The notes under the pieces are model-generated. The model had not been told where the DNA came from, did not search any database, and was given only the letters and a program-made list of their open reading frames with translations. This document shows, one piece after another, positions 27,296-30,716 of a stretch of DNA of 39,497 nucleotides. The stretch is from a virus. The stretch covers positions 1 to 39,497 of IMG/VR virus record IMGVR_UViG_3300045988_100167. One strand, written 5' to 3'. The number at the start of each line of letters is the position of its first letter. Position 1 is the stretch's first letter. The translations under genes and the position numbers were made by a program.

Positions 27296-27310
27296 AATAG
27301 CCTCTTTTAT
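27281..27310 (+). terminator. rho-independent terminator 1 after the HTH gene
   Basis: 11-bp stem AAGAGGTTATT/AATAGCCTCTT (one G-U pair) with loop GTAG and a T-rich tail. Confidence 0.65.
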
Positions 27311-27313
27311 AAT

Positions 27314-27358
27314 GTCATAGCAATGTCAAAAATAAGGCAATGTTATGGCATTTTTTTT
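27314..27358 (+). terminator. rho-independent terminator 2
   Basis: Imperfect 14-bp stem GTCATAGCAATGTC/GGCAATGTTATGGC followed by A plus a run of eight T. Confidence 0.7.
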
Positions 27359-27556
27359 GTGCTTAAAACTAGTACAATATAATTAAAGAAAGGAGATATT
27401 ACGAGAAAAGAAAAAGGTTATAAAAATATGTACAAAGTATATAACGCTCAGGTAATATCTTCTTTTTATATGTATAATTCTTACGAGAATTGATTTTAAG
27501 ACATTTTAGATGTTTAAATAATAAATTACATTAATAGAAGAAAGGAAGTGCTTAAA

Positions 27557-28033
27557 ATGGCATTTAATCCTTATTACGGATACACACCTCAATATGGTAA
27601 AACTCCATATTATATGCAACAACCAATAACAACACCACAATATCAAACACAAACGAATGACTATATGCAAAATATACAACCAGCATACCAAAAACCAATA
27701 ATTTTACAAGGTAAGAGTGTAGATAATATAGAAGTTGTAAAGGCAACAGACATTCCACTTGACGGTTCTGTAAGTTATTTTCCACTTGTAGATGGTAGTG
27801 CAATAGTAACAAAACAATTACAAGCAGATGGAACAAGTAGAATGGTAGTATATAAACCTGTTGAAACACAACAACCTAAACAAGTTGAGGAAAAAGAAAT
27901 TTATATAACAGAAAAAGAACTAGATGAAAAACTAAGTAAATTAGATAATAAAGAATTAAAAGAAGAAATAGAAAAAATGAAAAAACAAATAAAAGACTTA
28001 ATGTCTAACACAACAAGTACAAAAAGTAAATAG
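27557..28033 (+). CDS. cargo protein 1, with a Tyr/Gln/Pro-rich N-terminus
   Basis: AAGGAAG RBS before ATG 27557. The product begins MAFNPYYGYTPQYGKTPYYMQQPITTPQYQTQ..., followed by a beta-rich core and a Lys/Glu-rich tail. Confidence 0.65.
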   Translation: MAFNPYYGYTPQYGKTPYYMQQPITTPQYQTQTNDYMQNIQPAYQKPIILQGKSVDNIEVVKATDIPLDGSVSYFPLVDGSAIVTKQLQADGTSRMVVYKPVETQQPKQVEEKEIYITEKELDEKLSKLDNKELKEEIEKMKKQIKDLMSNTTSTKSK

Positions 28034-28049
28034 AAAGGGTTGATAAAAT

Positions 28050-28268
28050 ATGAATCCAATGCAATTTTTAAGAGGAATTAAAAATCCTCAACAATTTGTA
28101 ATTAACATGTTAGGACAAAATCAAACTCCTATGGGTGCACAACTTATGAATTTGGCTAAAACAGGAGATAAAACACAAATAGAAAATTTTGCAAGAAATA
28201 TATGTAAGGAACGTGGAATGGATTTTGATAAATCATTCGCAGAGTTCATGAAACAAATAAATGGTTAG
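28050..28268 (+). CDS. cargo protein 2 (72 aa, hypothetical)
   Basis: ORF with an AAAGGG RBS-like stretch, tightly spaced within the operon. Confidence 0.55.
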   Translation: MNPMQFLRGIKNPQQFVINMLGQNQTPMGAQLMNLAKTGDKTQIENFARNICKERGMDFDKSFAEFMKQING

Positions 28269-28316
28269 TTATTGCAATAAACTATATATAAAATAATAAA
28301 AAAGGAGGAAAAAAAT

Positions 28317-29183
28317 ATGAATTATTCAGATGGAGGATATTCATTGGCAGACATCGCTGCTGCTACAGGAAATAATAGTAGAAATAATGATGGTTTTGGC
28401 GGTGATGGTAGCTGGGCTTGGGTATTAATATTCCTTATATTCGCTTTTGGTGGATGGGGAAGAAATGGAAATGGATTTGGAGGAGGTTCTGGTTCAGGAG
28501 CATCTGACAATTATGTACTAGCCTCAGACTTTGCTACACTTGAAAGACAATTAGACAATGGATTTAATAGAATAGGAAATAGAATAGAGAATGTAAATAA
28601 TGGAATTTGTGATGGTTTCTATGCTATGAACACAGGAATGCTTAATGGATTTTCTGGAGTTCAACAAGCAATGTGCCAAGGTTTTAGCGGAGTAAATCAA
28701 GCAATTGCAACAAATGGTTATGAAACTAGATTAGGAACACAAAACTTAGCCTCTCAATTAGCAAGTTGCTGTTGCGATATTCGTCAAGAAATAGCAGATT
28801 GTTGTTGCAAAACACAGTCTAATATAAAAGACGTAAATTACAACATGGCAATGAATACTAATGCTATACAAAATGCAATGTGCTTAAATACAAGAGATTT
28901 AATAGACAATCAAAATGCAAATTACAGAGCATTACACGATGAATTAGTTGCTAATAGAATTGAAGATAAAAACGCTCAAATAACAGCACAACAAAATGAA
29001 ATAAATGCATTAAGATTAGCAGCAAGCCAATCAGCACAAAATGAGTATTTAGTAAACCAATTATCACCAAAATGTCCAGTACCAGCATTTCTAACATGCA
29101 ATCCATATACAGGACAAACATATACTAATGGATATGGATATGGATGTGGATGTAACACAGGTTGCAATTGTGGAAATTATTAA
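28317..29183 (+). CDS. cargo protein 3: a Gly/Asn/Cys-rich membrane-anchored protein
   Basis: AAGGAGG RBS. A TM helix (WAWVLIFLIFAFGGWG) is flanked by GFGG repeats. Paired CCC motifs occur in SCCCDIRQEIADCCCK, and the C-terminus is YGYGCGCNTGCNCGNY. Confidence 0.7.
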   Translation: MNYSDGGYSLADIAAATGNNSRNNDGFGGDGSWAWVLIFLIFAFGGWGRNGNGFGGGSGSGASDNYVLASDFATLERQLDNGFNRIGNRIENVNNGICDGFYAMNTGMLNGFSGVQQAMCQGFSGVNQAIATNGYETRLGTQNLASQLASCCCDIRQEIADCCCKTQSNIKDVNYNMAMNTNAIQNAMCLNTRDLIDNQNANYRALHDELVANRIEDKNAQITAQQNEINALRLAASQSAQNEYLVNQLSPKCPVPAFLTCNPYTGQTYTNGYGYGCGCNTGCNCGNY

Positions 29184-29227
29184 TAAAATAAAAGTGTATC
29201 CACGCACTAAAAAATGTGTGATTTATC

Positions 29228-29258
29228 AGAGGTAGTAAATCACTACCTCTTTAATTTT
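29228..29258 (+). terminator. rho-independent terminator / attenuator inside the cargo block
   Basis: 9-bp stem AGAGGTAGT/ACTACCTCT with loop AAATC, followed by TTAATTTT. Confidence 0.65.
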
Positions 29259-29279
29259 ATAAAGAAAGGATGATTTTAT

Positions 29280-29732
29280 ATGGAATGTGTAAAAAATTGT
29301 AGACTTTGTAATAAATTCATATTAAGTCAGTCAATAACATATAACGCAGGAGTAAATCAATTAATAGTAGATTTACCAGCTGGAAATTACGGAAATTGTA
29401 CAAAATATTGCATAGTACTAGCTCAATCAATTCCAACCAATACAACAATAAATGCACAAGTAGTATTTACAATTGGTGGAGACCAAACTGTTGGTTATCC
29501 ATTCTTAAATAAAGACTGCACACCAATATATGCTTCACAAGTAAGAACAAGAAGAATATATCCAACTAGGGTAAATACAGCAGTAAATTCAGGAGTATTT
29601 AAGTACATTGGAGATTGTTGCTTGCCAAGTAATGCAACTACTATAAACCAAAGTATTCCAGCATCAACTACAACAGCTGTTGTAACTCAGTCCCAAACAA
29701 CTCCAGTAGCTCCAACAAGAATAAAGTCTTAG
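29280..29732 (+). CDS. cargo protein 4: a Cys-containing beta-rich protein with a Thr-rich tail
   Basis: 150-aa ORF with an AAAGGA RBS. The N-terminus is MECVKNCRLCNKF, with internal GDCCLP and a C-terminal STTTAVVTQSQTTPVAPT. Confidence 0.65.
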   Translation: MECVKNCRLCNKFILSQSITYNAGVNQLIVDLPAGNYGNCTKYCIVLAQSIPTNTTINAQVVFTIGGDQTVGYPFLNKDCTPIYASQVRTRRIYPTRVNTAVNSGVFKYIGDCCLPSNATTINQSIPASTTTAVVTQSQTTPVAPTRIKS

Positions 29733-29744
29733 GAGGTGTTATAG

Positions 29745-30257
29745 ATGGAAGAAGAAAACAAAGAAGTCAAACAGGATGTAATATCAAAAGCAAAGGAAGA
29801 AGTTGAAAAACTTATAAAGACTGCAACCGAAAATGGATTACAAGCTAGTAATGTACAATTACTATATCAATTAATAGATATTCATAAAGATATCGAAAAC
29901 GAAAAATATTGGAAAAATAAGGAGGAAAATAATATGTATATGAGAGATGATTATGGAAACGATTACAGAGGTGGTCGTTCAAGAGATTCAAGAGGAAGAT
30001 ATATGGGAGATAGAAGAAGCGAATCATATAGAGGACAAAGAGTACTAGATGAAATGTACGACGGATATAGAAACTATTCAGACGGTAGAGAAGAATATGA
30101 TCGTGGAAATTATGGCGCAAAAGGCGAAACAATGAAAAGCCTTGAATATATGTTAGAATCTGTAACAGATTTTATTGAAATGTTACAACACGATGCAGGC
30201 TCACAAGAAGAAGTAGATATGATAAAGAAATATACTAGAAGAATAAGCGAGATGTAA
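29745..30257 (+). CDS. cargo protein 5, with helical ends flanking an Arg/Tyr/Gly/Asp-rich low-complexity core
   Basis: 170-aa ORF with a TAGGAGG RBS. The core reads MRDDYGNDYRGGRSRDSRGRYMGDRRSESYRGQR. Confidence 0.65.
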   Translation: MEEENKEVKQDVISKAKEEVEKLIKTATENGLQASNVQLLYQLIDIHKDIENEKYWKNKEENNMYMRDDYGNDYRGGRSRDSRGRYMGDRRSESYRGQRVLDEMYDGYRNYSDGREEYDRGNYGAKGETMKSLEYMLESVTDFIEMLQHDAGSQEEVDMIKKYTRRISEM

Positions 30258-30258
30258 T

Positions 30259-30616
30259 ATGTATAAATATATGAATAAAAACCCTCTTAACAATCAAGTG
30301 GACGATTGCTCCGTAAGAGCAATTAGTGTAGCGGAAGGAATAAGTTGGGACGAAGCATATGATAAGTTAAGTAATTCTGGTAGAGATTTAGGCTTAATGA
30401 TGAATAGTGTAGAAGCAGTTGAGGAATACCTGAACGAAAGATATGACAAAGTACCACATTATTCAAAATATGTGTGGGAATTTATTGAAGAATATCCAAG
30501 AGGTACTTATCTTGTAACAATGCCACGGACATATTACAGTAATAAAAAATGGCACTTTGTATGATACATTTGATTGTAGAAATAGAAGAATGTGGAATGC
30601 ATGGAAAACTAATTAG
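30259..30616 (+). CDS. small papain-fold (C39-like) Cys-His peptidase-like protein. The 118-aa product requires a +1 shift at CGG 30526-30528.
   Basis: A candidate catalytic Cys lies in NQVDDCSVRAISVAEG. The 0-frame ...GTYLVTMP stops 12 codons after the CGG. The +1 frame gives GHITVIKNGTLYDTFDCRNRRMWNAWKTN, with candidate catalytic His and Asp. Confidence 0.65.
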
Positions 30617-30641
30617 CTCTTGAAATACAGAGCTAATAAAT

Positions 30642-30716
30642 GGCAAGTTACTCAAGTGGATAAGAGGGCAGTCTGCAAAACTGTTATCGTCCGTTCAATT
30701 CGGACACTTGCCTCCA
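30642..30716 (+). tRNA. trnC: tRNA-Cys (anticodon GCA)
   Basis: Hand fold. Acceptor GGCAAGT/ACTTGCC, anticodon stem GCAGT/ACTGT, anticodon loop CTGCAAA and T arm GTCCG-TTCAATT-CGGAC. The discriminator is T, the tRNA-Cys identity base, followed by encoded CCA. Confidence 0.85.

Follow-up and report, generated by a model that had tools for sequence, protein, structure and literature searches.

A conserved, horizontally mobile phage operon that may encode a cysteine-rich fibrous assembly

The 39,497-nucleotide (nt) viral sequence IMGVR_UViG_3300045988_100167 (positions 1 to 39,497 of the IMG/VR record, analyzed at full length and referred to here as the window) carries, shortly before its holin and endolysin genes, a block of open reading frames (ORFs) with unusual amino acid composition. 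All of the features that a first-pass annotation had listed for this region (the ORFs, their composition and ribosome binding sites (RBSs), the leader, the terminators, tRNA-Cys, the holin and the endolysin) were found at or very near the positions given for them. Every gene of the window phage is on the same (plus) strand. The block starts with a gene for a 79-residue sigma-70 region-4-like helix-turn-helix (HTH) DNA-binding protein (27056..27295), continues with a non-coding leader and six ORFs, designated p1 to p6, and ends with tRNA-Cys. All six ORFs have GGAGG- or AAAGGA-type RBSs, and the p6 start codon directly follows the p5 stop codon. Cysteine accounts for 2.76% of the residues encoded by this module compared to 1.24% in the remainder of the window, TGC codons are likewise more common in the module than elsewhere in the window, and the GC content is 0.318 as against 0.281.

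Annotated phages, prophage contigs and a scan of species-representative genomes (one per species) supplied 92 loci, and hidden Markov models for each window protein were iterated over all ORFs of the gathered loci; the counts reported here are out of 93 loci, many of which are truncated. The genes recur in a consistent order: the HTH gene, sometimes preceded by a small companion gene (m2), a gap, p1, p2, p3, either p4 or an alternative that we term p4b, and p5, with p6 located before p1 or after p5 and with tRNA-Cys, where found, last. We detected p3 in all 93 loci, p1 in 79, p5 in 75, p6 in 68, p4b in 56, p2 in 48 and p4 in 29. The HTH gene, which had been placed outside the block, does adjoin it but belongs to the module, being its first gene, followed by a non-coding gap, whenever it is present (57 loci). 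The same arrangements were seen in an independent replicate of 76 unique IMG/VR loci. What the window carries at 27056-30716 is one instance of a phage operon that is conserved and moves horizontally.

The position of the operon varies among phages, supporting the earlier suggestion of a discrete, moron-like mobile unit. This is most apparent in a comparison of synteny with one relative (locus L038), whose terminase, capsid and connector proteins are 46-64% identical to those of the window phage, yet whose module lies among the head genes, as it also does in locus L003. The usual site is after the holin and endolysin genes, at the end of the late operon or prophage and next to an integrase gene or host DNA, and other copies lie 3´ of a receptor-binding protein gene. 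The arrangement previously described as splitting the lysis region is thus particular to the window genome, and across the loci the block is not a fixed part of standard lysis cassettes. The module is also carried by crAss-like phages, in one of which (cr125_1) it directly follows genes for a holin and a LysB/FtsL-like protein. As in phage morons, the position is variable among related phages, terminators lie upstream, the GC content is distinct and there is a dedicated regulator. The module nevertheless exceeds typical morons by far in size and conservation, is also carried by apparently virulent phages and has no evident lysogenic-conversion function.

The module is abundant. A tblastn search with p3 yielded 51 phage records, in several of which p4 adjoins p3, and the p3 family comprises at least 7,664 clusters at 90% identity (1,708 at 50% identity) and reaches crAss-like and Bacteroides phages. 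The family was found in at least 580 IMG/VR contigs, and the species-genome collection yielded 246 relatives. Many of the carrier bins are Clostridia, with Negativicutes and Bacteroidota also represented, and a phage of Butyrivibrio fibrisolvens carries the core genes as well. By inspection, p3, proteins like p4 and p1, and a protein rich in Arg and Tyr can be recognized as a core set in Bacteroides phage C3_41T2LP and in crAss-like genomes. No member of the p3 family has been named and none is in Pfam. More generally, Pfam, NCBIfam and PADLOC gave no convincing match for any module protein (the best PADLOC matches to p1-p6 were weak and partial, E ~0.002-0.04), the significant PHROG matches of p1, p3, p5 and p6 were all to PHROGs of unknown function, and no significant match to the structural or lysis categories of PHROG was found for p1-p6. 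The first-pass annotation had recognized no characterized family, and the profile and structure searches agree in giving no known virion or lysis family. The module is also not described in the literature searched, which covered appendages and DUF3992, the crAss spike protein, tRNA-Cys with cysteine-rich prophage genes, and BclA/C1q-like morons. As a whole, the module matches no described phage system, while its parts belong to known structural classes and the system is abundant.

The HTH protein encoded in the window gave weak HTH and sigma scores, below the cut-offs. Among 30 relatives, however, 15 matched Sigma70_r4 (best E 2.4e-10), 13 matched Sigma70_r4_2 and seven matched GerE, and the protein is presumed to be an activator of the module. 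In most loci, the non-coding gap after this gene is ~70-280 nt long and has a terminator hairpin within it. For the window, we confirmed that two consecutive terminator-like hairpins follow the HTH gene, one at 27281-27306 (-13.2 kcal/mol, z -4.7) with a U-run and one at 27311-27352 (-18 kcal/mol, z -4.5) followed by U8. Both fold well beyond shuffled controls, though both were missed by a simple terminator scan due to its loop and GC rules. The terminators upstream of the unit are thus present as had been claimed, but a further terminator-like hairpin lies inside it (29228-29250) and no convincing terminator was found at the 3´ end of the block. Promoter-like matches were no more common than in shuffled sequences. 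The leader (27296..27556) has an internal duplication of ~153 nt (repeats D1-D4) and a second RBS-like sequence, AAAGGAG at ~27388, ahead of a possible small Tyr-rich ORF; unrelated small ORFs occupy the same gap in several relatives.

By eye, many of the gaps have three to four direct repeats with a period of ~11 bp and a G(T/C/G)CA core followed by an A/T tract, as exemplified by GTCACTTTTT, present four times in L033 (7109-7160), and by GACAGATT-type units in L059 (1844-1900). Further repeat sites are found in L090 (818-880) and in the window (27308-27360), where the region forms the second hairpin and holds TG(T/G)CA units ~11 nt apart. These repeats could be binding sites for the HTH protein. 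No Rfam family was found for this gap or for the spacer between p3 and p4 described below. We also noted that, in seven loci (for example L024 6646-7218), a 190-residue protein with an AgrB-like multi-pass membrane N-terminal part is encoded upstream of the module. The AgrB match (E 8e-5) is just under the Pfam cut-off and the C-terminus appears, by inspection, to be of the sigma-region-4-like HTH type, features that suggest a membrane-tethered form of the regulator.

The third ORF, p3 (28317-29183), is the one gene found in every locus and encodes a 288-residue protein with 15 Cys residues (PHROG 16490, E 3e-39). An acidic N-terminus of ~31 residues is followed by a Gly/Trp/Phe-rich transmembrane segment of ~16 residues (~33-48), a conserved WGGxGFG linker, ~15 hendecad repeats and a C-terminal tail with the pattern CPxPAY...GCxC. 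The hydrophobic period is 3.62-3.66 residues, 11 is the best self-similarity lag in 158 of 238 members, and the content of charged residues is very low. A CCC motif (residues 151-153) is invariant in curated alignments and present in 228 of 241 members, and further Cys residues are adjacent to core positions of the repeats. In 217 of 241 members, the C-terminal flank of the hydrophobic segment carries more positive charge than the N-terminal one, which predicts an N-out/C-in topology with the rod in the cytoplasm. No significant match to p3 was obtained in a sequence/profile search of the PDB. The N-terminal LSxxD(V/I)xxL sequence resembles a double-glycine leader, but the residues at the would-be cleavage site vary and this idea was dropped. 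In the p3 homolog of the crAss-like phage cr125_1 (L011) and in neighboring genes, in-frame stops occur under the standard code, consistent with stop-codon recoding.

Immediately downstream of p3, in a spacer that spans 29184-29279 in the window, we found an attenuator-like RNA element (29201..29250) composed of one hairpin (H1, 29201-29220), a terminator-like hairpin (29228-29250) and a U-rich tail. The terminator-like hairpin (-18.8 kcal/mol, z -5.4) was also found by the terminator scan, and a hairpin with a U-run is present between p3 and p4 in most loci. In the window, nucleotides 29218-29226 on the 3´ side of H1 can alternatively pair with the loop and top of the terminator-like hairpin (29235-29243). 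Hairpins and alternative pairings in the spacers were scored by script, as the MAFFT alignment was not structurally meaningful, and 20 of 59 unique spacers were found to have, upstream of the hairpin, 8-10 nt of complementarity to its loop and top. The sequences of the alternative helix differ by branch, with at least four distinct versions, though the spacers are mutually related such that a combined p-value overstates their independence. Five of the last 12 codons of p3, just upstream of the element, are Cys codons. A hairpin at the p3 stop codon followed by a terminator-like hairpin, a disruptive alternative pairing and Cys codons before the stop are all reminiscent of trp-type attenuators. 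In contrast to these, the putative attenuator lies between two full-length genes and not after a leader peptide, the alternative helix is aimed at the loop and top of the terminator, and no Rfam family is matched.

The gene after this element, p4 (29280-29732), encodes 150 residues including eight Cys, organized as a beta-sandwich with a variable Thr/Ser/Pro-rich tail. C3, C7 and C10 of an N-terminal CxxxCxxC motif are invariant, as are C44 and C80, and the 563 relatives include a best 120 that are 65-93% identical. No match was found in Pfam or among PDB sequences. An AlphaFold2 (AF2) model has a predicted local distance difference test score (pLDDT) of ~88 over residues 10-110. Foldseek searches of the PDB with this model gave nothing significant, the best match being a baseplate/tail-fiber chain of phage Pa193 (E 0.03). 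In BFVD, the matches outside its own family were mostly C-terminal parts of fibers (E 3e-5 to 1e-2, probability 1.0), including hyaluronidase tail fibers, a T7-type tail fiber and fibers with collagen repeats and coiled stalks, with query TM-scores (TMq) of 0.40-0.48; the BFVD relatives of p4 come from contigs labeled as myo-, podo- and siphovirus. The modeled p4 fold thus resembles the distal, or knob, domains of tail fibers. The combination of N-terminal Cys residues with a beta fold had also brought an Ena (DUF3992) appendage protein into consideration, an idea rejected because no Ena structure was among the 50 PDB matches listed by Foldseek.

In most relatives, the p4 slot is filled by p4b, which is BclA_C-like: eight of 30 members matched BclA_C (PF18573), albeit below the gathering score (30.3 compared to 38 bits). 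Homology between p4 and p4b was undetectable at the profile level, and the window p4 has no BclA_C match. A PDB sequence/profile search with p4b gave no significant match either, and GXY collagen repeats are absent from the p3, p4 and p4b sequences. The first-pass annotation had suggested a cross-linkable structure of a surface or virion type, and the combination of a Cys-studded hendecad rod (p3) with a fiber-like beta-sandwich (p4) fits this suggestion.

Two further proteins carry predicted disordered regions, and their compositional bias is kept throughout their families. The first, p1 (27557-28033 from an ATG start, with a GTG at 27548 also possible), has in an alignment of 40 members a Tyr/Gln/Pro-rich disordered N-terminus, a beta domain of ~55 residues and a C-terminal coiled coil. 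By our own count, Tyr, Gln and Pro make up ~50% of the first 50 residues, and the family median is 44%, compared to a 99th percentile of 26% in controls. The second, p5 (29745-30257), is helical at both ends, and its disordered middle is rich in Arg, Gly, Tyr and Asp and contains a conserved (R)RDSxGRY motif; in the richest 40-residue window, the family median is 55% Arg, Gly and Tyr, compared to 22% in controls. These proteins fall into PHROG 21718 (p1, E 3e-9) and PHROG 28802 (p5, E 1.4e-11), while PDB and Pfam searches with p1 and a PDB sequence/profile search with p5 gave no significant match. Between p1 and p3 lies p2 (28050-28268), which encodes a Met/Asn/Gln-rich protein of 72 residues and holds this position wherever it was detected. 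Inspection of the N-termini of p1, p2, p4, p5 and p6 revealed no signal peptide.

Some loci depart from this layout. In at least five loci (L013 3394-4000, L019 5105-, L026 7172-, L028 7208- and L035 7264-), p2 and p3 are separated by an inserted NUMOD4/HNH_3 homing-endonuclease gene that has a homolog at window 34422-35000. In L001 (8338-9336), L002 (8401-9180) and L008 (6431-6958), p5 is replaced by a longer protein whose N-terminus is Arg/Asn-rich and which has a conserved LGLxGFK motif. A profile match of this protein to ferritin was weak (E 0.2) and was not relied on. A family of 108 residues with no Pfam match is encoded after p5 on the same strand in 17 loci, L009 (8365-8691) among them, all from the branch in which p6 is upstream, and may be a further member of the module.

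The last protein-coding gene, p6 (30259..30616), corresponds to a minimal papain-like protein of ~119 residues (PHROG 3754, E 1.4e-12). The claim of a small Cys-peptidase-like gene finds support in the family, in which N6, N8, D16, C17, R20, G82, H91 and D102 are invariant and D105 is nearly so, but not by the ORF as it stands in the window, where the annotated reading frame ends at 30564. A +1 frameshift at ~30523-30526, where CCAC supplies four bases for an expected three after ...YLVTM (ATG at 30520-30522), leaves the conserved C-terminus GHITVIKNGTLYDTFDCRNRRMWNAWKTN, with the predicted catalytic His and Asp, in another frame that runs to the stop codon at 30614-30616. The frameshift may be a sequence error, because two other window genes are also split relative to a related phage: terL (8298-8930 and 8950-9405) and the gene for minor capsid protein 2 (14217-14981 and 14887-15447), with both parts of each gene matching one L038 ORF. 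These splits suggest indel errors in the window sequence, or else real pseudogenes or introns.

In an AF2 model of a p6 homolog (pLDDT 83), the invariant Cys is near the start of a helix (14-26) and the His and Asp are on strands (91-96 and 99-102), which is the canonical order and placement for papain-like proteins. The best Foldseek matches, none significant, were for the most part to papain-like peptidases and deubiquitinases, with ZUFSP, UfSP, the C39 domains of ComA and PCAT1, and Josephin-2 at the top (E 0.26-1.9, TMq 0.31-0.46), and no match was found in Pfam or among PDB sequences. As in C39-, UfSP- and Josephin-type peptidases, the invariant Cys is at a helix N-terminus with His and Asp on the following strands; p6 differs in having only ~119 residues, no significant match, and no transporter or ubiquitin-like partner. 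Papain-like peptidases such as C39 domains and UfSP cleave after Gly-Gly.

The final element of the module is tRNA-Cys(GCA) at 30642-30716, identified with ARAGORN and matching the Rfam tRNA model with 57.7 bits. In 24 of the 93 loci, a tRNA-Cys gene is encoded on the same strand 11-676 nt (mostly 11-33 nt) 3´ of a terminal p6 gene and at no other place, and the arrangement recurs in IMG/VR loci. The tRNA is a true member of the module. A role as prophage attachment site was rejected given that the gene is internal to the prophage by ~1.3 kb in L004-L007 and, in the window, is flanked by p6 and the holin gene.

How might these parts work together? Our working proposal, which we put forward tentatively, is that the module builds a cysteine-rich fibrous assembly that is anchored in the cytoplasmic membrane and made in bulk late in lytic growth. 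The HTH protein would be produced by readthrough from the late genes and would activate a promoter beyond the two terminators, probably by way of the phased repeats in the gap. The p3 protein would insert through its Gly/aromatic hydrophobic segment, leaving the acidic N-terminus outside and the rod in the cytoplasm, and its hendecad region of ~170 residues would form an oligomeric coiled-coil rod ~25 nm long. The Cys layers at or next to the core, including CCC, could bind metal or cross-link the chains once oxidized. The Cys-bearing, fiber-knob-like p4 may cap or decorate the rod, with p1, through its Tyr/Gln/Pro tail and coiled coil, and p5, through its Arg/Gly/Tyr middle, serving as multivalent disordered assembly partners. 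Processing of one component by the putative Cys-His-Asp protease p6 is also envisaged, for which the conserved Gly-rich juxtamembrane linker of p3 is the best candidate. The hairpin after p3 would set the ratio of p1-p3 to p4-p6 and the tRNA, and tRNA-Cys would meet the unusual demand of the cysteine codons. At lysis, the assembly would be released or exposed on membrane remnants.

Several of these choices follow from features given above. Because the partners have no signal peptide and the charges flanking the p3 membrane segment put the rod inside, the assembly would form at the cytoplasmic side of the membrane and would not be exposed before lysis. Bulk production of rod and knob would explain why a tRNA is dedicated to the operon. 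A role in the lytic cycle is suggested because no lysogeny gene was seen among the window-phage ORFs scanned, all genes are on one strand and the module is present in crAss-like phages. We therefore favor a function at the cell envelope, during lysis or thereafter, and consider one in lysogens or spores less likely.

A number of points weigh against this proposal. No homolog of known function backs any of the steps, and inference underlies the oligomeric state of p3, its contact with p4, the topology, any metal binding or disulfides, what p6 cleaves and when the genes are expressed. The topology of p3 is predicted from one or two charged residues on each side of a hydrophobic segment that is short (~16 residues), and amphipathic helices on lipid surfaces typically show hendecad periodicity as well. 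The similarity of p4 to fiber knobs is moderate (TM ~0.40-0.48), and its high conservation is not that of a typical receptor-binding knob. For p6, the gene is broken in the window sequence and the fold similarity is not significant. Oxidative cross-linking may fail in the gut lumen, which is reducing. Finally, the module lies in early regions of C. perfringens and Bacteroides phages, which argues against strictly late expression.

A more elaborate version, which we regard as improbable, is that the p3 rods and p4 knobs make up a membrane-tethered, organelle-like assembly that nucleates a two-component condensate of p1 and p5, trimmed by p6 and tuned by the attenuator and tRNA-Cys. By analogy with FUS-type proteins, the Tyr/Gln tail of p1 and the Arg/Gly/Tyr middle of p5 would then interact by Tyr-Arg "sticker" chemistry, p6 would be directed to Gly-Gly, and attenuation would be coupled to translation directly downstream of the Cys codons clustered at the p3 stop. 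If true, this would be a new kind of phage-encoded cell-biological device common to Firmicutes and crAss-like phages.

The main rival to a membrane-anchored assembly, unlikely in our view but with a real chance of being correct, is that p3 and p4 are a rod-plus-knob part of the virion, either a head or tail fiber or a needle that pierces the host membrane by inserting its Gly-rich hydrophobic N-terminus, with p1, p2 and p5 acting as chaperones and p6 as a maturation protease. A coiled-coil shaft with a distal knob is the architecture of P22/Sf6 gp26-type needles and of tail fibers with collagen or coiled stalks, and the low-charge, fiber-like p3 rod and the p4 fold, similar to distal tail-fiber parts, are readily accommodated in such a structure. 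The genomic context is also compatible, since in most Firmicutes phages the module is part of the late or structural operon or lies at its end, in places right after the tail fiber or receptor-binding protein gene or among head genes. Moreover, the dedicated tRNA suggests expression at structural levels, and crAss-like homologs have been annotated by others as "outer capsid protein/viral fiber". However, docking domains normally co-vary with the virion, whereas the N-terminus of p3, its presumed attachment end, is transmembrane-like, shows no virion-docking domain and is conserved across siphovirus-type and crAss-like phages with unrelated structural modules. The module also moves as a unit, in some phages into early regions, together with a dedicated regulator, a protease-like gene, the genes for two disordered proteins and a tRNA, while p4 is far more conserved than the usual receptor-binding tips and no structural PHROG category is matched. 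Given the conservation of the anchor end across unrelated virion types and the free movement of the module, a lipid membrane is the more likely site of the p3 anchor than the virion. The membrane could instead be a target late in infection, with p3 acting as a spanin-like protein or class-I-type fusogen that disrupts or fuses membranes and the other proteins as its regulators, which we consider improbable. Like the i-spanins (Rz), which have a transmembrane segment, a coiled coil and conserved Cys, p3 combines an N-terminal transmembrane segment with a long coiled coil and conserved Cys, and the module often adjoins genes for holins, endolysins and XhlA-like proteins, as seen for its position between small membrane proteins and the holin in the window and after the holin and LysB/FtsL-like genes in cr125_1. 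In contrast to two-component spanins (Rz/Rz1), p3 has the opposite predicted topology, with the rod in the cytoplasm, and no lipoprotein partner, and most carriers appear to be single-membrane Firmicutes in which a spanin is not needed. The position is not fixed either, with the modules of L003, L038, L008 and L012 away from the lysis genes, no significant lysis-category PHROG match was found for p1-p6, and seven conserved genes plus a tRNA exceed any known lysis accessory.

The composition rich in Cys, Tyr and Gly had led the first-pass annotation to point to spore-coat, exosporium or appendage proteins. On this reading, the proteins would be made in the mother cell or lysogen, possibly under control of the GerE/sigma-region-4-like HTH protein, and cross-linked on the spore. 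The BclA_C-like domain in the p4 slot of most relatives, the GerE matches of seven of the 30 HTH relatives, the many Clostridia among the carrier bins and a SleB-type gene (Hydrolase_2) on one prophage host contig all fit this idea, as does the absence, by inspection, of signal peptides, which suits assembly in the mother-cell cytoplasm. The resemblance extends to the BclA exosporium nap filaments of Bacillus and Clostridioides, which likewise are fibers with a jelly-roll knob, no signal peptide and Cys-rich partners. They differ from the module in that the latter has no collagen repeat, its stalk and knob are separate polypeptides and the hendecad stalk is membrane-anchored; additionally, the window p4 is not a BclA_C member and no Ena structure is among the PDB matches listed for its model. 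There is also a difference from Cys-rich coat proteins of the CotY/ExsY/CdeC type in that no Pfam or NCBIfam coat or exosporium family is matched and the module is not restricted to spore formers. Carriers of the core genes include crAss-like and Bacteroides phages, Negativicutes and Bacteroidota bins, and the phage of Butyrivibrio fibrisolvens, which is a non-sporulating host. This host range, along with the lack of a lysogeny gene among those scanned in the window phage, weakens the spore idea to the point that we consider it very improbable as a general role. Scarcely less improbable is a role in superinfection exclusion, defense or anti-defense, in which a membrane complex would block DNA entry by other phages or counter a host system. 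The module typically lies at the usual moron site, with lysis genes on one side and the integrase or attachment end on the other, or neighbors antirepressor genes; it is also mobile, has its own regulator and includes a membrane protein. Nevertheless, PADLOC gave no convincing match, the module is present in apparently virulent phages, and seven genes of structural-type composition with a dedicated tRNA are unlike the known exclusion proteins, which to our knowledge are single small proteins.

If the proposal of a membrane-anchored fibrous assembly is correct, one of the most common accessory gene sets of human and animal gut phages, spanning thousands of protein clusters in Firmicutes phages, crAss-like phages and cultured Bacteroides and Clostridium phages, has so far gone unnoticed. 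Seven genes inherited together, along with a tRNA of their own and two RNA/DNA elements for regulation, would constitute a function-sized target within phage "dark matter". The operon would also be a clear case of a tRNA retained for one operon with an amino acid bias and could reveal a new type of fiber or membrane assembly that forms when anaerobes are infected. The module is found in several phages in culture, which makes it directly testable; candidate carriers are Butyrivibrio phage Ceridwen, the C. perfringens phages HMD-PC1, PMQ04 and CPD1, and Bacteroides phage C3_41T2LP.

The window phage has a siphovirus-type genome with genes for an SPP1-type portal, an HK97-type capsid protein and a tail fiber with an S74 chaperone domain, and no near-identical DNA was found among GenBank phages. 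Upstream of the HTH gene are two genes for small membrane proteins. The first, m1 (26425..26709, plus strand), encodes 94 residues with an N-terminal transmembrane segment and a coiled-coil tail and matches PHROG 1863 (unknown function, E 1e-7); its relatives adjoin the module in three loci, L038 and L028 among them. The second, m2 (26720..26995, plus strand), encodes 91 residues with a coiled coil preceding the transmembrane segment, an XhlA-like architecture that Pfam did not confirm. Relatives of m2 are found immediately 5´ of the HTH gene in 16 loci, including L003, where the whole set is among the head genes. Downstream of tRNA-Cys, a holin-sized ORF of 66 residues (30888-31088) and an Amidase_2 endolysin gene (31157-31903, E 4.8e-30), both on the plus strand, are followed by recombination and replication genes. 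The early region contains tRNA-Trp(CCA) and tRNA-Gln(TTG) (window 5252-5507), and a Trp/Gln tRNA pair is located near the module in L015 and L023. Lastly, an ORF of 1,094 residues with no Pfam match (window 10916-14200) lies between the portal and minor capsid genes, which is unusual for this position.

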